A DNA stretch of 64,000 bases from NCBI GenBank assembly GCA_017560765.1, contig JAFZEI010000028.1, positions 361 through 64,360 on the forward strand. The letters run 5' to 3'. The stretch is from Clostridia bacterium. GTDB lineage: Bacteria; Bacillota; Clostridia; UBA1212; UBA1255. Below, piece by piece: positions 1,803-14,179 of the stretch (positions within the stretch are counted from its first letter, which is position 1; every line of letters begins with the position of its first letter). Under the pieces are notes generated by a model, which searched no databases, was not told where the DNA came from, and saw only the letters and a program-made list of their open reading frames with translations. The translations under genes were made by a program, and so were the position numbers.

Positions 1803-3425
1803 TCAATTTATAAAAAGAGCCATTCCAAGCGAAGATTTACTGGGATCGTCGGGCAGTTTTAAATAACCTTCTTCAACCAGATCATGAATGGCCATCATAC
1901 GCATTGCATATAATTCCATACCAATATAAAATTCCATATTTTTATGCAATACCTGATGAGTGTATTTTTTTAATATAGTCTCCACCTTTTTATACAAATC
2001 CGTCACATTTTGAACAAGCCACTGTATGTCATCCGGTAAAATATCTGGGGGTTCTCCCTCCTTTGCGCGTACTACGACAATATCAGGAATTAAATATCCG
2101 TCTTCGGACAAATGAGCATACCTGCCATTTATCGATTCCCAAACTCTTTTTTCATTATCGCTTAATGAAGATATTTTTTTGTTTTCTTTTATACAGCTGC
2201 ACATTAATTCGACTTCTTGGCTGTTTGGCTCTCCGCATTGCTCCCACATAGAATAATCTCCGCATTTGTATACATTAAAAGCACCACTATCAGTGATATA
2301 ACCATTACATCCCATTATGGTTATTTCCGGAAGTTCCACCGTTTCATAACCAACAAATCCCCAAGATTCTCCATTAGCCCTTTTAGGCAACTTACCGTCA
2401 AAACCTCCGTATAATCCATTAGGATTCTGTTCTTGTTGCACCATGTTGATCAACACATCAATAGCAAACGGAACCAAAAGCCAACGAATAGTGTTATCTT
2501 CTATATGAGGATATTCACAAAAAGCCGAACGATCTTCATTCAATCTGTTTTCTATAAGTTCACGTATCAAGCGGCTTCTTTCTTTTGATTCTTGACGCAG
2601 AGCGTTATAGATTTCCATACGACATTCTTTATCTAATATGAAGAAATTAGTTATATATTTATCTCCTTGCTTTTCAAGAAGCGTAGCTTGATGGAGTAGG
2701 TTCACTTCTTCCTCCATATACGGAAGTGCCACACCAAGTTCAATGGATAATTCTTCAAGTGTAGAAGGGTTATTGTTTGCTTGTAATAAAATATTATTTG
2801 GTATTTTTCTATTTACCGCTCTCCAAGGCAGACCTGTAGGTTGAGCTCCGTCTGCCGCATATGTTATATTTTCAGGGTTATAACTGCGTTTTCCAAATGT
2901 TCTTGCCATTTCCATACCTTCTTTCAAAATGTTTCTTGCGCGAAAAAGTCTCTGTTTTACCGCGCTTTCCGTAAGTGAAAGTGCTGATGCAATGTCACGA
3001 ATACTTTTATTTTCTATATAATAAGTAACGACAATATTTCGGTAATCGCTCTTGATGAATGCCAGCTCACGCCTGAGCAAAGCCATCTGCTCTGAATGTA
3101 TTAATTCATCAGAAATGCTTTCGTTAGCGTCCTCAATTTCATAATCATATACATCTTTATCGGTTACTGATTCATTTCGATTATGTTTTTCTTTTGCCCA
3201 TACAGAATAACGATTACGTGCGATTTGCCATATCCATGCAGAAAAATCATTCGGTATTGTACCTTTGTTTAATGCCATAATAATTTGAAACGCAATATCC
3301 TGTGTCAAATCATCTGCGTCATTTGGGTTACCCGTCTTTTTCAAACAAAAGTAAAATATCTTTTCTGCATAGTTTTCGCTAAATTCGTTGATAAGCTTAT
3401 CTTTTATTTCGTTCGATTCTTGCAT
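1803..3425 (-). CDS. ECF-type sigma-70 factor (regions 2 and 4) fused to an uncharacterised ~350-aa C-terminal domain. Referred to here as sigma-fusion A.
   Basis: The N-terminal ~180 aa carry sigma2 (DADDLTQDIAF...WIWQIARNRY) and sigma4 (IRDIASALSLTESAVKQRLFRAR). This is followed by a YNPENITY linker, a second HTH-like segment (TLEELSIELGVALPYMEEEV) and a long Cys/Trp-containing domain. There are no transmembrane segments. Confidence 0.6.
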   Translation of the reverse strand: MQESNEIKDKLINEFSENYAEKIFYFCLKKTGNPNDADDLTQDIAFQIIMALNKGTIPNDFSAWIWQIARNRYSVWAKEKHNRNESVTDKDVYDYEIEDANESISDELIHSEQMALLRRELAFIKSDYRNIVVTYYIENKSIRDIASALSLTESAVKQRLFRARNILKEGMEMARTFGKRSYNPENITYAADGAQPTGLPWRAVNRKIPNNILLQANNNPSTLEELSIELGVALPYMEEEVNLLHQATLLEKQGDKYITNFFILDKECRMEIYNALRQESKERSRLIRELIENRLNEDRSAFCEYPHIEDNTIRWLLVPFAIDVLINMVQQEQNPNGLYGGFDGKLPKRANGESWGFVGYETVELPEITIMGCNGYITDSGAFNVYKCGDYSMWEQCGEPNSQEVELMCSCIKENKKISSLSDNEKRVWESINGRYAHLSEDGYLIPDIVVVRAKEGEPPDILPDDIQWLVQNVTDLYKKVETILKKYTHQVLHKNMEFYIGMELYAMRMMAIHDLVEEGYLKLPDDPSKSSLGMALFIN

Positions 3426-3589
3426 CTTTGCTCTCCTTTCATTTTAATAGTGTGGCATTTTTCAAATTGGTTACATTGATTTATAAAAAATTTTTTTATT
3501 TATTATTCTTCATGATAATATTATTGCGGTTCGGCCTTGAAATAAAATTTTCATTATTTTAGCACAAAAACAAGAAACCATCTACAAAA

Positions 3590-3632
3590 ACCGCCGAGAG
3601 TTACAATGACAGTTACTCTCGGCGGTTTTGTT
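3590..3632 (-). terminator. Bidirectional rho-independent terminator after sigma-fusion gene B.
   Basis: ccgccgagagt-loop-actctcggcgg with flanking A and T runs. Confidence 0.6.
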
Positions 3633-3633
3633 A

Positions 3634-6600
3634 TTATTGTTTATCAATCATATTTTTAGCTCGTTCGATATATTCCTTGAAACAGTCCTCGTTTCGGACA
3701 GAGTCGAACCATTCCCAGCCATAAGGTGCGGTCAGACCGTAATACATAAGGCTGCAAGTTTCATTAAACAGATGTTCATAAGATATAGGTTCTATCGTGT
3801 CATCGGGAAGTTTTATTAAACTCTTTCCTTTAATCACTTTTATATCACCGTAAATCAGCGGATCACCTACATCCATTTCCGTACCATTGGGGATGCTATC
3901 CCATTTAGTATAAATTTCAAATGCTTTTTCAAGCAACTCATAACCTTCCTCTTTTTTACCGCATCCAAAAAGAGCACACGCAGTACGGAAACTTGTGCTT
4001 GCGTAAAGTCCTAGCCAAGCATTCGGCACTTCACCATCTCCGAGACTTTCCATCATTTTCAAACGATACTTATTCCAAGCAACTGCTTTTCCTTGTGCTG
4101 CCCAATTTCTTGACGGACGTCCAAAAAAATGACAAAGAATATGAAAATTGTTGGCATCATGACGAAGGCGGCTTTCTTCGTGTTTTCCTTGATCCCATAA
4201 ACGTTCTTCGACGATTTCTGCTTGGATTTGACTATATTGAGTAATAGGCGGCGGAAGCTTACGAACACCTGTAAGGTCAGAAAATACAACGATATCTCCG
4301 TCTTCATCTGCTACGAATGCATATTCAGCAGCACCGACAAAGCCATCAGTTAAATCAATTGCATCATAACGGCGCACAAGTCCATCCTTCACAGGCATAT
4401 AACCCTCGCCTGTTCCCTCGTAAGAGGTCAGCTCATAAACTGCTGTTTTAGCGCCACCACAGTATTCATTTTCGGTACGAACAATACCGATTTTATAAGC
4501 AAAATAGTAAACTTTCTTGCCGCCGCGGTACGACCAACCGTCATTCATTCCGTCAATATCAAGACAAAGCTTGAAGCAATTATCAAACGTACCCGCCTTA
4601 GTGGTAACAGTGCCGCCATTCTCACATGTAATTTTCGTTTTGAAAGTTCTATCCCATTTTGTATACTCAACAATGGGATATGCACCTATGCGCCACTCGT
4701 CAGACCAAATGCAATTTGTCGCATCTTGTAAAATCCCAAATATATCATTATATAGAATTGGTTTTTCAGCTGCACCCATACCGCCTGCACATTTCCACTC
4801 AAAAGACCAACGAGAATTATATTCTGTGAGAAATAAAGAATTTGATTTCTTTTGGATATATTCCCTACAGAAGAAATTCCAATGTCCCGTGGTGGTATAA
4901 TCGGGATTAAAAGTGGTATCGGCAGACAATATTCTTCGCGCTACCGACGCCGCGGCTTTTGTATGAGCCTTTTCCATTGGTGTCACAGAAAGTTGTTCGG
5001 CGCGTTCTATGGCGGAATACACGTCACATATATACGACCTGCCGTTAGCTTCGTTATGGCAAACATAGTCATTGGCTATTTTTTGCACCATATCAAGCCA
5101 AGAGTTATTATCATAATCAATTCTCTGAGTATTTCCCCAATATGAAAAAATAATATGTTCATTATCAGCATATGAAACATCAATCCTCAGTTCAGACAAA
5201 ACAGTATCGGGAGCATACATAGCATCGTATTCCCAAGTATTTCCGGAGAACACGGGAAGAAATCCACTGCCACCTTTTATTTCATATTTGCTGAGAAGGT
5301 GCGTAACTGTCGTTCCATCTGTGATATGATCTTGACGAACTATACCAACACCGTCTTTATAATAAGTTCTGCATACGATTTTTTGTACATCCGTCCAACG
5401 CCTGACTTCCCAAAGCTGACATTTTTCATATCTGCCCGAAGGAGTATCTACCAATTCATTGTCCGAAATGTAAGTAAGTTTCGTGCCATCAGAACCTACG
5501 TAGGTTTCTCCCTGAGAAACCTCTGCAAAGAAAAAGCCGTCACAACTTGAGGCATTACGCAGTATATGTGGGCTCTTGCTATCTATAGAGCCGAGAAAAC
5601 CTTGGCAAAAACCATTCTCTGTCCAATAGCGTGGTTTACCGTTTATAATACGGATTTCTTCGGCACCTGCGCTTATCAGATAGCGTTCTTTTACTGTTTC
5701 TTTATATCGTGTTTGCAAAACGTCTTCCATTTTGCGAGCCCAAGGCACAAGCACACGATAAATATCATCTTTTGCAAGAATTTCTTCTGCTTTGTCATAT
5801 GCCGCTAGCCCCTCCTCTGCTCTGCCTTCTCTAAACAAAAAATATCCGAGCCAATACCACTCGCGTCCGAGAGACTTAACAAATCCTGCTTTTTCAAGAC
5901 GCGGTATCTGCTTGTCACGAATAAAGTCAATGCGCGCCCCACCGTATACCTTTGAATCCTCTCGGTCAACAATAAAACACATTACTTCTTCATTCTTGCC
6001 CTCCATAGCAGCATTTGCAATTCTAGCAAACAGAGCATCATTCTTTTCGCCCGGAAGCCACCACCATCCTCGCATCAGCACATCAGCAATAGCGTGTTGC
6101 TTTTCAGTACATTCGGGAAGTTCCTCTACTTCGCGAAGCACCTTCGTGTACACCTTTTCAAAACCACATTTATCATTCTTGACTTGCCATAATTTCAGCT
6201 CTTCAACCTTCTTCATAACACGCTGTACAAGAGTATCATTATACTTCTCATTCATAGCACAAAGTTCCTTTCTGATTCGTTTTCTGCCGTCATGAAGTTG
6301 CCACTTGACTGTCCCTTCGGAAATTCTCATACGGTCTGCTATTTCCGCAATAGAAAGCTCTTCAAAATAGTGCAGATGTATAATCTGCCTTACTTTTTGC
6401 GGTAGCATCCCAACAATTTTGTCAACCTCATTTCGTTCTTCGGAAAGTGCATACAACTCTTCGGGATTCTTTGCTCTGTAGTCGGAAATACTGAGATTAT
6501 CCACCACATCAAGCGGAAGGAAACTGCGATATCTGCTTATCATATTTATTGCGCAGTTTTGAGCAATACGGCATACCCAGGAAGCGTACTTTTTCGTATC

Positions 6601-6801
6601 CTGCAGAGTATTTAGTTTCATCCAAGCTGTAACAAAAGCATCCTGAGCGGCATCCTCTGCCATAAAATGATTTTTAGTTATTTTCATTGCAGCGGATATC
6701 ACCATATTCTGATAACGAGTTACCAAAATCTCGTATGCATTTTGTTCGCCTGCAAGTGTGAGCATTACCAGCGTTTCGTCCGTTTCATTTTTATAGTACA
6801 T
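3634..6801 (-). CDS. Giant (~1055 aa) ECF-type sigma-70 factor fused to a ~870-aa cytoplasmic C-terminal extension. Referred to here as sigma-fusion B.
   Basis: sigma2 (YEILVTRYQNMV...ASWVCRIAQN) and sigma4 (LSIAEIADRMRISEGTVKWQLHDGRKRIRK) occupy the first ~200 aa. The remainder has TPR-like helical stretches (GREWYWLGYFLFREGRAEEGLAAYDKAEEI; LLEKAFEIYTKW) and two Gly/Thr/Tyr-rich beta-type modules. The likely start is the ATG after the AAGGAG ribosome-binding site (MYYKNETDE); the ORF track extends it to 6867. Confidence 0.55.
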   Translation of the reverse strand: MYYKNETDETLVMLTLAGEQNAYEILVTRYQNMVISAAMKITKNHFMAEDAAQDAFVTAWMKLNTLQDTKKYASWVCRIAQNCAINMISRYRSFLPLDVVDNLSISDYRAKNPEELYALSEERNEVDKIVGMLPQKVRQIIHLHYFEELSIAEIADRMRISEGTVKWQLHDGRKRIRKELCAMNEKYNDTLVQRVMKKVEELKLWQVKNDKCGFEKVYTKVLREVEELPECTEKQHAIADVLMRGWWWLPGEKNDALFARIANAAMEGKNEEVMCFIVDREDSKVYGGARIDFIRDKQIPRLEKAGFVKSLGREWYWLGYFLFREGRAEEGLAAYDKAEEILAKDDIYRVLVPWARKMEDVLQTRYKETVKERYLISAGAEEIRIINGKPRYWTENGFCQGFLGSIDSKSPHILRNASSCDGFFFAEVSQGETYVGSDGTKLTYISDNELVDTPSGRYEKCQLWEVRRWTDVQKIVCRTYYKDGVGIVRQDHITDGTTVTHLLSKYEIKGGSGFLPVFSGNTWEYDAMYAPDTVLSELRIDVSYADNEHIIFSYWGNTQRIDYDNNSWLDMVQKIANDYVCHNEANGRSYICDVYSAIERAEQLSVTPMEKAHTKAAASVARRILSADTTFNPDYTTTGHWNFFCREYIQKKSNSLFLTEYNSRWSFEWKCAGGMGAAEKPILYNDIFGILQDATNCIWSDEWRIGAYPIVEYTKWDRTFKTKITCENGGTVTTKAGTFDNCFKLCLDIDGMNDGWSYRGGKKVYYFAYKIGIVRTENEYCGGAKTAVYELTSYEGTGEGYMPVKDGLVRRYDAIDLTDGFVGAAEYAFVADEDGDIVVFSDLTGVRKLPPPITQYSQIQAEIVEERLWDQGKHEESRLRHDANNFHILCHFFGRPSRNWAAQGKAVAWNKYRLKMMESLGDGEVPNAWLGLYASTSFRTACALFGCGKKEEGYELLEKAFEIYTKWDSIPNGTEMDVGDPLIYGDIKVIKGKSLIKLPDDTIEPISYEHLFNETCSLMYYGLTAPYGWEWFDSVRNEDCFKEYIERAKNMIDKQ

Positions 6802-6900
6802 ATGCATCTCCTTCTTTTTATAAAATCGGAAATTTCCAATTTTTAAGCGCTTGTTTATTAGACACAAAGCACTATGAAAAGGTTGGGTGAAGTAAAAATA

Positions 6901-8547
6901 TTAATTTTGAACAATAAGTGTTGTAAGTGATTTTTTCTGTTCTTCGGTAGGAGGTTTTATCTTGCCGTTGTTAAGAAGTGTTACAATACAGTGTAGTACG
7001 AACAATCCATCAGAATGAAATACATACTGCAATTCAAATGCTTGAACTTTTCTGAGGTGTGCAGGTACAGAGTTTAGCACAGCTTCAACATAAGGAGCTT
7101 TCAGTGTATTGAAATCTTTCAAGTACTTTGCCTTTATGCGTTCACCGATAGCAAGTAGTTTATCTTGAATCTCTTTGTTTGCTAAAATGACAATCTGCCA
7201 CACGGACTCGAACTGTTCATCATATTTTCCGTTAGTTTTAACGTATCCGCGTTCTGCCAGCCACGCATATTCATCTTTTGAAAGGCGCTCCCCAAGCAAT
7301 TCTCTGTCGTACAGCGACAGAATGCGTTTTGCTTCGTCTGAATATATAAGCTTATTGCTATTTTTGTGGTCAGACCACTCACTGTCTATCTGCCAAAAGA
7401 TATGCTTATTATCACCATTCCACATAGGGCCGCACCAATTTCTCATATGAACGTAGTCGTCGGGAAGTATAATTTCCGTAGGCGCTACGGATGTGTTGTA
7501 AATATTATGTGCGCCGTCGGGACGAATTGTAGCAACTTCTTCAAACGAAATACTCTCGTCAATAAGACTCTTGCCTGAGCAAGCAGCGATATAAGGAATC
7601 AGCGACCACAGTACAAAATTACGGTCTGTATGTCCGCACAAAATATCAGTATCATCAAGAATACCTGATAATGTTAATTCATCATAAAGTTCGTTTGCAA
7701 ATAAATCAGTAACACGCTTATACATACTATTCTGTATAGTAAACAGTTCTACTGTTGGCTCGCTAATTATGAAGTTTACAATGTATTTATCATTTTGTGC
7801 CTGTAAAAAGCCGTATTCTTCAAGAACTTCTACTTCTGATTCAATGTACACGGGCGAAACGCCAAGGTCATCGGCAATCTCATTAATACCCTTTGCTTCG
7901 TCACGCACACAATAGCATATATTTTGAGCCAATGCAGAACGTAAAAACTCGTCCGGGGATTTTGTCCCGACAGAACCTGCAACGCTGTAAGAGCTGAATT
8001 TAATAGGATTAAATTTAAGTTCACTTGTTTTTCTCATAGTTTTCATACCTCTTTTCAATTCTTTTTTTGATTCAAACAAGTGCCACTTTACAGTGCCGAG
8101 GGGAATATTTAATTCTTTTGCAATATCGGATTGCTTACGGTTTTCAAAATAATACGCAATTACAATTCTGCGTTGAAGTTTTGAAAGATAAGCTATTTCG
8201 CTTTGCAAACGAATAATAGAATCAGCATCGTCGTCTTCATACGGAAAAGTGTCGGGAGCAACCGCAATTTCCGTCACATCATCAATTGGCACACCGATAA
8301 CAGCTTTGGAAGTGTCACGGTAATAATTGCTGAGAGCATTGTGGGCAATAGTCCAAATAAATTTACCAACATCACCAATGTCATCTTTAATTAACAGAGC
8401 GCGGTAAGCCTTTAGCACTATTTCCTGCGATAGATCCTCTGCATCTTCTGCATTTTTGCACCTTTTAAGAGCGAATCCAAATATAGGTTTTAAATATTCT
8501 GTTATAAATTTTTCAGCATCTTGTCTGTTCACTTGTTTGTACCTCAT
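6901..8547 (-). CDS. ECF-type sigma-70 factor fused to a ~360-aa C-terminal domain; a paralogue of sigma-fusion A. Referred to here as sigma-fusion C.
   Basis: sigma2 (EDAEDLSQEIVLKAY...FIWTIAHN) and sigma4 (QSDIAKELNIPLGTVKWHLFESKKELKRG) are present. It has the same linker (LKFNPIKF), second HTH-like segment (INEIADDLGVSPVYIESEVEVL) and DKYIVNFII motif as A (DKYITNFFI). Confidence 0.6.
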   Translation of the reverse strand: MRYKQVNRQDAEKFITEYLKPIFGFALKRCKNAEDAEDLSQEIVLKAYRALLIKDDIGDVGKFIWTIAHNALSNYYRDTSKAVIGVPIDDVTEIAVAPDTFPYEDDDADSIIRLQSEIAYLSKLQRRIVIAYYFENRKQSDIAKELNIPLGTVKWHLFESKKELKRGMKTMRKTSELKFNPIKFSSYSVAGSVGTKSPDEFLRSALAQNICYCVRDEAKGINEIADDLGVSPVYIESEVEVLEEYGFLQAQNDKYIVNFIISEPTVELFTIQNSMYKRVTDLFANELYDELTLSGILDDTDILCGHTDRNFVLWSLIPYIAACSGKSLIDESISFEEVATIRPDGAHNIYNTSVAPTEIILPDDYVHMRNWCGPMWNGDNKHIFWQIDSEWSDHKNSNKLIYSDEAKRILSLYDRELLGERLSKDEYAWLAERGYVKTNGKYDEQFESVWQIVILANKEIQDKLLAIGERIKAKYLKDFNTLKAPYVEAVLNSVPAHLRKVQAFELQYVFHSDGLFVLHCIVTLLNNGKIKPPTEEQKKSLTTLIVQN

Positions 8548-8628
8548 TGAAAGCTTTCACCTATATAGACACAGCTTTTGAAAAAGGTTGGAAAAATTTT
8601 TATAGTGAAACAATCTTTAAACTTCCAA

Positions 8629-8830
8629 TCACTCACAGGGCAAATCAAAAAGTGTTTGAATATAATTACGTCTGCCGTAGAGCACACGTATAATATGTAC
8701 TTCGTCACCGTCCAACTTGTAAAAAGCAATATATTTACCAGGGTTTTTCACTGCATAAATCATCTGTTATATATGATTTTATTTCTTTTAAGTCATTTAT
8801 TGCTGTAGGCGAAAAGTTAATTTTTGCCAT
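8629..8830 (-). pseudogene. Degraded RelE/ParE-family toxin gene, with a frameshift and an internal deletion.
   Basis: One frame gives MAKINFSPTAINDLKEIKSYITDDLCSEKPW* (8830-8735). A second frame continues as ...NPGKYIAFYKLDGDEVHIIRVLYGRRNYIQ (to 8629), which matches the ParE/RelE C-terminal YRIIYrvdde-v-ILRighRrd motif. The break is at an A5 run, and the alpha2/beta1 core (~25 aa) is missing. Its ATG overlaps the antitoxin stop as ATGGCAAAAATTAA. Confidence 0.55.
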
Positions 8831-9077
8831 CGTCTACCCCCAAAAGTTTCTCAACTTCAGAAATACCAACATAACCCTCTTCTTTAGCAGAAGACTCGCC
8901 TTTAACCAGTTCACTCAACAACCTAAGTGTCGCCTGTGTTCTCTCAAAATCATCTATATCAACAATAGCATACATGCCGCGACCATTTTGAGTAAGGAAA
9001 ACCGGTTCTCCTACTGCGACATCTCGTAAAACTTCATTATAATTTTTTAAATCTGATACAGGTTTAATGTTCGGCAT
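8817..9077 (-). CDS. Phd/YefM-family type II antitoxin.
   Basis: MPNIKPVSDLKNYNEVLRDVAVGEPVFLTQNGRGMYAIVDIDDFER matches the Phd/YefM fold signature. A strong ribosome-binding site (AAGGGGGGGAAG) precedes the internal ATG; the ORF track extends it to 9134. Confidence 0.7.
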   Translation of the reverse strand: MPNIKPVSDLKNYNEVLRDVAVGEPVFLTQNGRGMYAIVDIDDFERTQATLRLLSELVKGESSAKEEGYVGISEVEKLLGVDDGKN

Positions 9078-9155
9078 ACATCTTCCCCCCCTTGTTATTT
9101 CGCTGTAATGATTCTTCGTAAAATTCAACAGCAAAAAATACCATCAAGAAATCAT

Positions 9156-11830: not shown

Positions 11831-14179
11831 GTGACGGATTTTATGCAGCTTTCTCAAGGAAGTAAGTGGATTTGGGCAAAAAACTGTCCTTACGAAGTAA
11901 ATTGTTATTGCGAATTTGCTGACAAATTTATTGTAGAAAGACCTGATTCAACCGTACAAGTCAGAATCAGTGCAGACAGTCAATATGCTTTATGGGTAAA
12001 CGGAAGATTTGCAGACTTTGGTCAATATGCCGATTTTCCCGAATACAAAATTTTTGACACAATCGATATTTCCCATCTCGTCAATGTAGGAGATAACGAA
12101 ATCCGCATTCTTGCATACTATCAAGGTACTTCCTCCTCTACATACTTACACGCGGCAGCCGGGCTGCTTTATGATGTAATATGTGACGACCGTGCCTTAG
12201 CCGTAAGCAACTCGTACACTCTTTCAAGAGTGGCTTCTGAATACAAAAACGGCCCCATAGAGTTCGTTACATGGCAGCTTGGTTATACGTTTGCATACGA
12301 TGCCACCAAAAGAGGCCAAAACAAGTGGCAGAGTTCCGTAGCAGTAAGCAATAATGTAAAAGTTTTTCCAAGACCTATTGCTAAACCGGAAGTCAAAAAC
12401 CGCGTGCCTGCCACGATAATTGCACAGGGCTTTTTTATGCATCACCCTGCATACAAAGACAACGCTCCGGCTCTTGCAATGCAGAAAGCCTTTTTATCTT
12501 CAGGCAGAATTTGGGATTTAAACAAAAAAAGCGGCTGCGAGCCATTCAAACTCAGCGCTCGCAATCCTCTTGTTTGCAAGGTTGATCCAACATCCCCTGC
12601 CCATTTAGGCGAAAACGGTGTTTACTTAATAATAGATTTAGGTCAAGAAGAGGCAGGTTGCTTCGAGCTTGATATTGAGGCAACAGAAGGTACTCGTATT
12701 TTGATTGGCTATGGAGAGCATCTTGACGACTTGCGCATACGTACTGCATTAGGCGGACGCTCTTTTGCGGCGGAATACATTTGCGCTCCCGGCAGAAATC
12801 GATATGTCCACTACAACAAAAGGTTTGGCTGTCGTTATTTGTCTCTTTATATAGAAACTTTTGACTTTACTTTATATTACGCGGGCCTTCGTCCTTACCA
12901 ATATCCTTTTAAAGAGCGAGGAAAGTTTATTTGCTCTGATAATTTGCATAATAAGATATACGAAACTTGCCTGCACACATTAAAGCTAAGCGCTCATGAG
13001 CATTACGAGGATTGTCCGTGGCGTGAACAGGCCTTATACTCTATGGATTCAAGAAATCAGATTTTATGCGGATACTACGCTTTTGGCGAATATGATATGC
13101 CAAGAGAAAGCATAAGACTGCTTTCTCTTGGTTTGAGAGACGATGGGTTATTAGAGTTGTGTGCTCCCGCAAAGGTAAACGTTACCATTCCATCTTTTTC
13201 GCTTATTTGGATTTTAGAGCTGTATGAGTACGTTATGTACTCCGGTGACTTAGCTTTTGGTGAAGAAATGTGGCCTTGTGCCGAGAAAATCATACGCACA
13301 TTTTGGCGAAACGCAAAAGGCCGCGATTTGCAAGGTCCCATGTCTGATGATGGTTGTTGGAATTTCTATGAATGGTCTTACGGTTTGTCCGATGGTTTCC
13401 CGAAAAATCTTCGTGATAAAAATGACTACAGAAATTACGACGGTCCTTTAAGCGTTTTTTATATTATTGCTTTGGATTCAATGATAAAGCTCTCGAAGCT
13501 TTTATATTCTTATAGCAAATCATCCGGTGCAGAAAATTCCGGTATGCATGAAATTGATTTTGTAGAGAAAATTTCTTGGTGCGAAATGCTCTTAAATGGT
13601 GCTAAAGCTGCTTTGCACGATGCGTTTTGGGATTCCTCTGTAGGGGCATACTGTACATACGTTGTAAACGGAGAAAAGTTGCATTTTTCTGAGCTTATGA
13701 ATTCTCTTGTTTTATATGCGGGTCTTGTTCCCGAATCACATGTCAAACGTATAGCAGATATACTTTCACACAATTCGCAGTGTTCCCCTTCCCTTATTCC
13801 TGTGACTCTTAGCCATACAATTTTTAAATACGAGGCTCTTTTAAATGCAGGTGATACGTATGCCGACTATGTTATTAATGATATTGCCGATAAATGGGGA
13901 TATATGTTATATAATGGTGCCACATCTTTTTGGGAAACCATCGATGGAGCTTGGGCTTTTGATACAGCAGGCAGTCTTTGCCACGGTTGGTCTGCAATAC
14001 CTGTTTTGTTCTATTACAAATACTTATTAGGTGTTTCTCCTCGCACAATTGGTTTTAGAGATTACAATTTTAAACCTTTAAAATTAAAGACGCCCCTAAA
14101 AGCCTCGGGAAAAATCCCTCGATTTGACAGAGCGTCTTTAGATATCGAAATTAACGAAAATGGTTTTAAGCTGACTTAA
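11831..14179 (+). CDS. Six-hairpin glycoside hydrolase, alpha-L-rhamnosidase (GH78)-like, intracellular.
   Basis: 782 aa with no signal peptide. The EDCPWREQALYSMDSRNQ motif resembles the DCP-RER-W-GD motif of the GH78 catalytic domain, and the (alpha/alpha)6-like C-terminal half is consistent with this. Family assignment is tentative. Confidence 0.45.
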   Translation: MTDFMQLSQGSKWIWAKNCPYEVNCYCEFADKFIVERPDSTVQVRISADSQYALWVNGRFADFGQYADFPEYKIFDTIDISHLVNVGDNEIRILAYYQGTSSSTYLHAAAGLLYDVICDDRALAVSNSYTLSRVASEYKNGPIEFVTWQLGYTFAYDATKRGQNKWQSSVAVSNNVKVFPRPIAKPEVKNRVPATIIAQGFFMHHPAYKDNAPALAMQKAFLSSGRIWDLNKKSGCEPFKLSARNPLVCKVDPTSPAHLGENGVYLIIDLGQEEAGCFELDIEATEGTRILIGYGEHLDDLRIRTALGGRSFAAEYICAPGRNRYVHYNKRFGCRYLSLYIETFDFTLYYAGLRPYQYPFKERGKFICSDNLHNKIYETCLHTLKLSAHEHYEDCPWREQALYSMDSRNQILCGYYAFGEYDMPRESIRLLSLGLRDDGLLELCAPAKVNVTIPSFSLIWILELYEYVMYSGDLAFGEEMWPCAEKIIRTFWRNAKGRDLQGPMSDDGCWNFYEWSYGLSDGFPKNLRDKNDYRNYDGPLSVFYIIALDSMIKLSKLLYSYSKSSGAENSGMHEIDFVEKISWCEMLLNGAKAALHDAFWDSSVGAYCTYVVNGEKLHFSELMNSLVLYAGLVPESHVKRIADILSHNSQCSPSLIPVTLSHTIFKYEALLNAGDTYADYVINDIADKWGYMLYNGATSFWETIDGAWAFDTAGSLCHGWSAIPVLFYYKYLLGVSPRTIGFRDYNFKPLKLKTPLKASGKIPRFDRASLDIEINENGFKLT

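Follow-up and report, generated by a model that had tools for sequence, protein, structure and literature searches.

A family of clostridial ECF sigma factors with a long C-terminal extension that opens with a predicted acidic winged helix

Introduction

Regulatory domains fused to sigma factors of the extracytoplasmic function (ECF) type make for compact orthogonal switches, and such fusions are prized both for this and for adding a third route to bacterial signalling. Here we describe two sigma fusion genes, A and C, which lie with a giant neighbour, B, at positions 1803-8547 of a 64,000-nucleotide stretch of DNA from a Clostridia bacterium (GenBank assembly GCA_017560765.1, contig JAFZEI010000028.1, positions 361 to 64,360 of the forward strand; hereafter the window). 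What could several hundred residues attached to a sigma factor be doing? Cis-acting sigma extensions have published precedents (reviewed in PMC8999054). The SnoaL ECFs (SigJ of Mycobacterium tuberculosis; groups ECF56, 205, 294 and 295) resemble A and C in having a sigma2-sigma4 core fused to a soluble extension, no cognate anti-sigma factor, a core phylogeny that tracks the type of extension and an ECF-type promoter of their own (PMC7826278, PMC8999054). The agreement between core phylogeny and extension type is the argument that Casas-Pastor et al. made for contacts between core and extension (PMC7826278). The ECF42 proteins carry a long soluble extension with TPR repeats, thought to touch sigma4 through its proximal part only, and A and C likewise show a conserved proximal and a variable distal part. 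The CorE-type proteins (ECF238) offer a third parallel, a single-polypeptide sigma factor with a C-terminal sensor, which is how we are inclined to read A and C.

Our reading, which we prefer with moderate confidence, is that A and C are ancient paralogues in one family of soluble, single-protein ECF sigma factors whose extension would act in cis as a sensor. Four features together favour a polypeptide that is regulated in cis: the core consists of sigma2 and sigma4 alone, the extension is long and conserved, no anti-sigma gene lies next to it, and the core phylogeny tracks the type of extension. The family is large, with at least 1280 clusters at 50% identity matching a profile of the post-sigma module at E<=0.001 (746 at E<=1e-10), and our literature search found no paper that describes it.

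Sigma cores and a shared extension

The three open reading frames (ORFs) fill their part of the window on the same (minus) strand, and a sigma core opens all of them. In each of the three, PF04542 (Sigma70_r2) and PF08281 (Sigma70_r4_2) pass their Pfam thresholds, and TIGR02937 gives 74.3 bits for A and 75.5 bits for C against a cut-off of 42.9, which B exceeds as well. Sigma70_r1 and Sigma70_r3 have no match in A or C at E<=1 in Pfam, and the spacer between regions 2 and 4 of A is a short disordered linker, the predicted local distance difference test score (pLDDT) of its AlphaFold (AF2) model falling below 50 at residues 84-109. By domain content, A and C are ECF (group 4) sigma factors. The recognition helix of sigma4 reads GTVKW in both B and C and SAVKQ in A. 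All three proteins are acidic and lack a transmembrane segment (the highest 19-residue Kyte-Doolittle mean is 1.45), and neither A nor C has a Cys-rich tail, their 7-8 cysteines being scattered.

Is the resemblance of A and C beyond the sigma domains real? Full-length BLASTP aligns 311 residues at 29% identity (E=4e-35), and the post-sigma4 parts by themselves (A from residue 176, C from residue 173) still align over 143 residues at 27% identity (E=1.5e-12). Family profiles built from 42 homologues each match with 99.8% probability (E=6e-30), a 90-residue segment with the helix-turn-helix (HTH) and the DKYI(T/V)NF motif matches alone in hhalign (E=1.1e-12), and a hidden Markov model (HMM) of the post-sigma module, run on the window, finds A and C only. 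These statistics rule out a chance similarity and show that the resemblance after sigma4 is real and specific to the two proteins. An earlier note on this DNA had proposed that A and C are paralogues which share an HTH-like segment after sigma4 and flank an unrelated giant, and had named an insignificant post-sigma4 alignment as what would speak against it. The alignment is significant, every peptide that the note quoted is found in the two ORFs, and the extension of B bears no similarity to those of A and C, neither of whose post-sigma parts matches it (BLASTP E>1).

The last ~250 residues were said in the same note to diverge, and a specialisation of the sensing domain was proposed. The divergence holds in part. 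These residues have diverged beyond pairwise detection: iterative HMM searches left A-type and C-type C-termini unconnected, and hhalign of close-family alignments gave E=0.004 for the middle third and E=0.017 for the C-terminal third. They are nevertheless still homologous and colinear. With diverse A-type and C-type alignments (effective numbers of sequences, Neff, 6.9 and 5.5), the parts after the winged helix align with 97.8% probability (E=8.6e-13) at ~15% identity; the 253 aligned columns begin with the first and extend to the final residue. An LSxxE...W...G unit (421-443 in A, 422-434 in C) and a terminal motif, L(V/L)xxGxLKxPxxxxKSSL, are common to both, and the secondary-structure elements of the two extensions follow the same order in the AF2 models. 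From this end-to-end alignment, A and C are homologous along their whole length, and the distal part has diverged rather than been replaced. A domain swap is rejected on the same grounds: the two proteins have one and the same domain, strongly diverged.

The AF2 models were built on a 55-sequence alignment, and that of A has a mean pLDDT of 80.4 and a predicted template modelling score (pTM) of 0.65. Its distal part consists of three long helices, a beta sheet (354-388), a helix-helix-beta unit (402-453), a helical bundle and a terminal strand. The distal part has no match in Pfam or among PDB sequences, where the whole-module profile was searched.

A predicted acidic winged helix behind sigma4

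What is the segment that the paralogues share directly behind the sigma core? In both models sigma4 is followed by three helices, helices 1 and 2 being separated by a beta bridge of one residue, and then by a beta hairpin (A: H1 207-218, bridge 221, H2 223-230, H3 234-246, strands 250-253 and 256-259; C: helices 205-213, 221-228 and 232-244, strands 248-251 and 254-257). As modelled, this is a canonical winged helix (H1-beta1-H2-turn-H3-beta2-wing-beta3), with pLDDT 70-89 in A. The motif DKYI(T/V)NF(F/I)I, also pointed out in the earlier note, reads DKYITNFFI at A 255-263 (nt 2637-2663) and DKYIVNFII at C 253-261 (nt 7765-7791), and its DKYI(T/V)NF part makes up the second wing strand. Conservation of the motif extends to 120 diverse relatives, with a basic residue at K256 in 91%, a tyrosine at Y257 in 110 of the 120, and N260 and F261 conserved.

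Profile searches agree with the modelled topology in a weak but consistent manner, and of the two folds named in the earlier note, winged-helix or sigma region 4-like, they favour the former. In the PDB, a profile of 30 diverse segments matched winged-helix proteins only, with 6sbs at the top (E=0.0037) followed by SSO2273, ArsR, AdcR and Lrp, and the winged HTH (wHTH) types matched across searches were GntR, ArsR, MarR, Lrp and Csa3/CasR. When the 30 members were scanned singly against Pfam, all matches stayed below the cut-off: HTH_Cmi2_C in 15, HTH_PafC in 11, DUF4423 and HTH_11 in 9 each, and Sigma70_r4 in only 2. In PADLOC, the winged helix of C matches CARF/CasR effector domains at E ~1e-4. 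An origin by internal duplication was also considered. Compared with the family's own sigma4 by hhalign, the segment aligns over 33 columns that cover H1, H2 and the first part of H3 (NILLQANNNPSTLEELSIELG vs NIVVTYYIENKSIRDIASALS), but sigma region 4 has no beta wing, and a probability of only 58.6% amounts to a generic HTH resemblance, which speaks neither for nor against such a duplication.

The chemistry of the fold is unusual for a DNA binder. The recognition helix of the 120 relatives reads (L/P)PY(M/V)E(E/D/S)EV, with PYMEEEV as one form, and an acidic residue stands at E238 in 95%, at E239 in 67% and at E240 in 95% of them. Helix 2 is likewise acidic, the mean net charge of the winged-helix core is -3.5, and its pI comes to 4.6 for A and 4.1 for C. 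The Csa3/CasR, Cmi2 C-terminal, PafC HTH and ArsR/MarR/GntR domains have the same H1-beta-H2-H3-wing topology and are the best, sub-threshold sequence matches. In those domains a basic or polar recognition helix contacts the DNA, whereas that of the A/C family is conserved as acidic, and in the alignment to a GntR-type HTH the usual DNA-contact positions hold hydrophobic or acidic residues.

The earlier note had left two roles open for the extra HTH, a second DNA-binding element or an intramolecular mimic of a sigma-binding partner. The former, in which the winged helix would read an additional element of a three-part promoter, is the main rival to our reading and draws on the canonical fold in the models, the kinship to DNA-binding proteins and the basic wing residue K256. 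Set against these are the glutamates conserved at the exposed positions of the recognition helix and the net negative charge of the domain, which make classical major-groove binding unlikely. The mimic idea is possible; the surface is acidic and the module is found almost only in fusion with sigma factors, both of which would suit it. A more specific form, in which the acidic winged helix would cover the DNA-binding face of sigma4, or a contact site of RNA polymerase, as a built-in DNA mimic or anti-sigma element until the distal domain binds a cytoplasmic ligand, we put forward tentatively.

Family, genomic context and history

Family members are nearly all 510-570 residues long, their module starts near residue 165-175, and most of the top matches span positions 1-358 of the module profile. 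Domain partners were counted in a sample of 392 module-bearing proteins, 324 of them with a usable N-terminal part, and an ECF sigma core was present in 318 of these 324. The other 68 start with the module itself and are apparently truncated. Stand-alone modules of 360-390 residues were considered as a class of their own, and the one case inspected (P0195) is cut by the end of its contig. A single protein, P0213 (484 residues), joins a different N-terminal domain, an XRE-type HTH, to an A-type module; it is a real mid-contig gene, in L087 (597-3905), downstream of an Abi_2 gene. The named sources are metagenome-assembled genomes (MAGs) of Clostridia, among them Oscillospiraceae, Lachnospiraceae and Christensenellales, sampled for the most part from gut or faeces, and wherever members are named the annotation is just "sigma-70 family sigma factor". 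The family has neither a Pfam model nor a solved structure. A defence or phage origin was considered and set aside, as PADLOC gave weak wHTH matches only and PHROGs matched the sigma core only. One of the PHROGs profiles, phrog_1740 (RNA polymerase sigma factor), has 567 positions of which only ~50-225 match A, B and C; with a profile so much longer than its matched part, phages may have long sigma fusions as well, though of a different type.

No anti-sigma domain was found in A, C or the module by Pfam and profile searches, which includes class I domains fused in cis (zf-HC2, RskA or a similar four-helix bundle), and across 80 species-level genomes the C orthologues have no conserved neighbour, anti-sigma or other. 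At 37 of 78 C-orthologue loci the gene that follows is encoded on the other strand, and a same-strand gene within 60 bp is present in only 12. The sole recurrent downstream gene is another sigma fusion. Tandem arrays are common, with three family members and a B-like gene in L061, three members in L081 and two each in L026, L053, L059 and L080; B-like giants adjoin C orthologues in L051, L061, L080 and L084. In contigs L003-L005, an A-family orthologue (P0171) is directly followed by a gene with DUF4368, a domain known from serine recombinases, which hints that some family copies lie near mobile DNA.

This context bears on a different view of the extension, namely as a docking platform for an unlinked partner or for oligomerisation instead of a ligand sensor, comparable to what has been proposed for the TPR repeats of ECF42. 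Winged helices often mediate protein contacts, arrays of paralogues might cross-talk, and no ligand-binding fold is recognised in the distal part (Pfam, PDB). On the other hand, the 80 genomes show no conserved neighbouring gene that could encode a partner, and a distal part that diverges fast and yet stays colinear fits the recognition of varied small molecules or substrates at least as well. We judge the docking platform improbable.

How old is the pair? The earlier note had read the arrangement as a duplication around B within the lineage, followed by specialisation, and had called for a phylogeny. Some observations are in keeping with a recent event in which one copy then acquired another sensing domain: A and C are close to each other on the same strand, tandem arrays recur, and paralogues share a homologous upstream cassette. 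However, A and C are only 25-29% identical, whereas orthologues in many species reach 52-70% for A and 62-73% for C. In a tree of the sigma cores alone (neighbour-joining, no bootstrap), the smallest clade with the C-type proteins is C-type in 35 of its 37 members, its sister clade consists of the A-type proteins together with more derived types that nest within them, and no split in the family is deeper than that between A and C. The distal domains, moreover, are homologues and have not been swapped. Finally, a conspecific contig (L002; 97-99% DNA identity) has B and A intact, with C reduced to pieces of 156 bp and 184 bp, so C is strain-variable. Compared with L002 6241-6525, the loss takes in window positions 6958-7092 and 7277-8583, and the remnants read there as a 94-residue ORF. 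Judging from the basal split, the identities and the C-less contig, the A/C duplication is ancient and the arrangement around B neither recent nor fixed. A recent duplication is contradicted by these results and deserves hardly any credence.

Promoters and transcription units

ECF promoters usually consist of an AAC-type -35 and a short GTC/CGT-type -10 element ~16 nt apart. Upstream of 68 of 71 C orthologues the motif AAAAAGTTCCAACCTTTT-N9-CGTGTCTATATGGGTGAAAGCTTTCA is conserved; it can be read as CCAAC-N16-GTCTA, which would fit this layout, and is taken here as a predicted promoter. The pattern has two matches in the window against 0.00 expected, the second lying ahead of B, and a C-like motif also precedes the B-like genes of L051 and L084. 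The predicted promoter of B is near-identical to that of C (CCAACCTTTT...GTGTCTA) with a spacer 2 nt longer. Either C or B, or the two together, may drive expression of B. The A-clade motif differs from that of C and reads TGCACCC/GTAACC-N14-CACACTATATGGATGAAAGGAGG, or AACC/ACCC-N14-CACACTAT in another notation of the conserved predicted promoter; its AC[AT]CTAT element occurs in 35 of 44 distinct upstream regions, compared with a background of 4%. The cores set side by side are CCAACC-N13-GTGTCTA for C and AACC-N14-CACACTAT for A.

Clade-specific ECF-type promoters directly upstream suggest that A and C are separate, autoregulated transcription units. Many paralogues share an upstream cassette in which a strong terminator is followed by a TGnTATAAT-type housekeeping promoter and then by the ECF-type promoter, and the hairpin sequence of the terminator after B also precedes paralogues in other genomes. 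The window holds no further A or C promoter motif at a plausible promoter position, and we therefore predict that the regulons of A and C lie elsewhere. An A-like match at 12257-12286 (-) was discarded, being antisense within an ORF and looking like chance.

The promoters also bear on a second DNA-binding role for the winged helix. In the C clade the -35 is immediately preceded by a conserved AAAAAGTT and the -10 immediately followed by the palindrome TGAAAGCTTTCA, so that the core promoter is flanked by candidate sites for such an element. The promoters of A and C have a TGAAAG block in common, in the form CTATATGG(G/A)TGAAAG; it overlaps the ribosome-binding region, and common descent of the cassette can explain its conservation. 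With the acidic chemistry of the domain on the other side, we regard a second DNA-binding element as unlikely. Short perfect palindromes downstream of the -10 are found in other promoter types too: besides TGAAAGCTTTCA of the C clade (8548-8559, -) there are AAGCGCTT in the B type (window ~6840-6850, -) and TGAACGTTCA in a fourth type (L026, L061, L080). They could be operators, hairpins of the 5' untranslated region or merely inherited cassette sequence. Between the terminator of B and the promoter of A, TTTCAAGGCCGAACC stands at window positions 3528-3542 (-). It matches the -35 half of the fourth paralogue type's promoter (TTTCAAGTCCGAACC...CGACTATA; L026, L061, L080) without its -10, and may be a relic of a lost paralogue.

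A working model

How could the parts work together? In the cis-acting sensor reading that we prefer, the extension would replace a separate anti-sigma factor, and each protein would be autoregulated by reading its own AACC...CTAT-type promoter. Along the extension, a conserved linker strand leads into the acidic winged helix, then into three long helices and an alpha/beta region. The winged helix would contact protein rather than read DNA, with sigma4, sigma2 or RNA polymerase offering basic surfaces for it to dock on, and the fast-evolving distal region would sense a cytoplasmic cue.

Several points weigh against this model. The structure prediction for C is poor (pLDDT 56.9, ~65 in the winged helix and <50 at residues 335-403), the proteins closest in sequence to the winged helix bind DNA, and the wing lysine K256 is conserved. 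The XRE fusion P0213 suggests a module that is able to serve a different output domain and is not tied strictly to sigma, and further copies of the promoter motifs are missing from the 64-kb window.

Were the extension a sensor, the arrays would mark many cytoplasmic signals in abundant, poorly studied gut anaerobes. Were the DNA-mimic idea true as well, the family would be a very large new class of self-contained, signal-gated sigma factors, which gut Clostridia would have expanded into tandem arrays with an own promoter code and signal per copy. For work on either question the family offers two clade-specific promoter motifs, an acidic winged helix with E238 and E240, and natural variation that includes a C-less strain.

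Gene starts and neighbouring features

The features of the locus are collected in Table 1. For C, the GTG at 8532 is probably the start rather than the ATG at 8547, which would give 543 residues: a GAGGT ribosome-binding site lies ahead of it, the family consensus start is MNRQD, and the nearest homologues have 543 residues. An exact look-up of the C sequence returned no record. B probably starts at the ATG at 6801 rather than at the TTG that opens the ORF, since AAGGAG lies 6 nt upstream and B-like proteins open with MYYKNE; it would then have ~1055 residues and the C-B spacer 99 bp. At 1055-1077 residues, depending on the start, B contains TPR-like repeats and a weak DUF3108-like match. Beyond C, at window positions 8629-8830 (-), a parE toxin gene is broken by a 108-bp loss and other changes that leave ORFs of 31 and 44 residues; it adjoins an intact phd/yefM antitoxin gene (8817-9134), and parE is intact (106 residues) in L002.

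Table 1. Features of the A-B-C locus (window positions)
Feature	Position	Strand	Description
Gene A	1803-3425	-	540 aa; ECF sigma and 365-aa C-terminal extension
A residues 1-175	2901-3425	-	sigma2, disordered linker and sigma4 core; Pfam r2 17-72, r4_2 125-165
A residues 205-262, predicted acidic winged helix	2640-2813	-	AF2 secondary structure, PDB and Pfam wHTH profile matches, charge analysis
A residues 263-540, distal extension	1806-2639	-	AF2 pLDDT mostly >85; homologous to distal part of C
Predicted ECF-type promoter of A	3447-3474	-	GTAACC-N14-CACACTAT
Intrinsic terminator after B	3585-3629	-	hairpin of -26.9 kcal/mol, then T run; sets off the A transcription unit
Gene B (context)	3634-6867	-	ECF sigma and TPR/DUF3108-like extension (Pfam); outside the A/C family
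Predicted C-like ECF-type promoter upstream of B, within the C-B spacer	6857-6887	-	CCCAACC-N15-GTGTCTAAT
Gene C	6901-8547	-	548-aa ORF; paralogue of A
C residues 203-260, predicted acidic winged helix	7768-7941	-	AF2 (pLDDT ~65), hhalign against A segment, PADLOC matches
C residues 261-548, distal extension	6904-7767	-	diverged homologue of distal part of A (hhalign)
Predicted ECF-type promoter of C	8563-8593	-	TTCCAACC-N13-GTGTCTATAT

Comparison with known ECF groups

Judged by its domains, the A/C extension matches no described type, be it SnoaL, TPR, Cys-rich, WD40, membrane-spanning or DUF1835. Pfam finds no SnoaL, TPR or DUF1835 domain in A, C or their relatives, and the two proteins lack the characteristic domains of ECF41/56/205/294/295, ECF42, ECF238/287/288, ECF48/52/53/263 (membrane-spanning) and ECF264 (DUF1835). 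CorE-type proteins (ECF238) sense through a metal-binding, Cys-rich tail of ~20 residues, which A and C do not have. ECF42 is set apart by its TPR repeats, of which the locus has TPR-like ones only in the neighbour B, and by a YCII-type neighbour that is not conserved here. The SnoaL ECFs differ in the size and make-up of the extension: theirs measures 120-150 residues, whereas that of A and C has ~365, is without a SnoaL match, starts with a winged helix and comes from MAGs of gut Clostridia.

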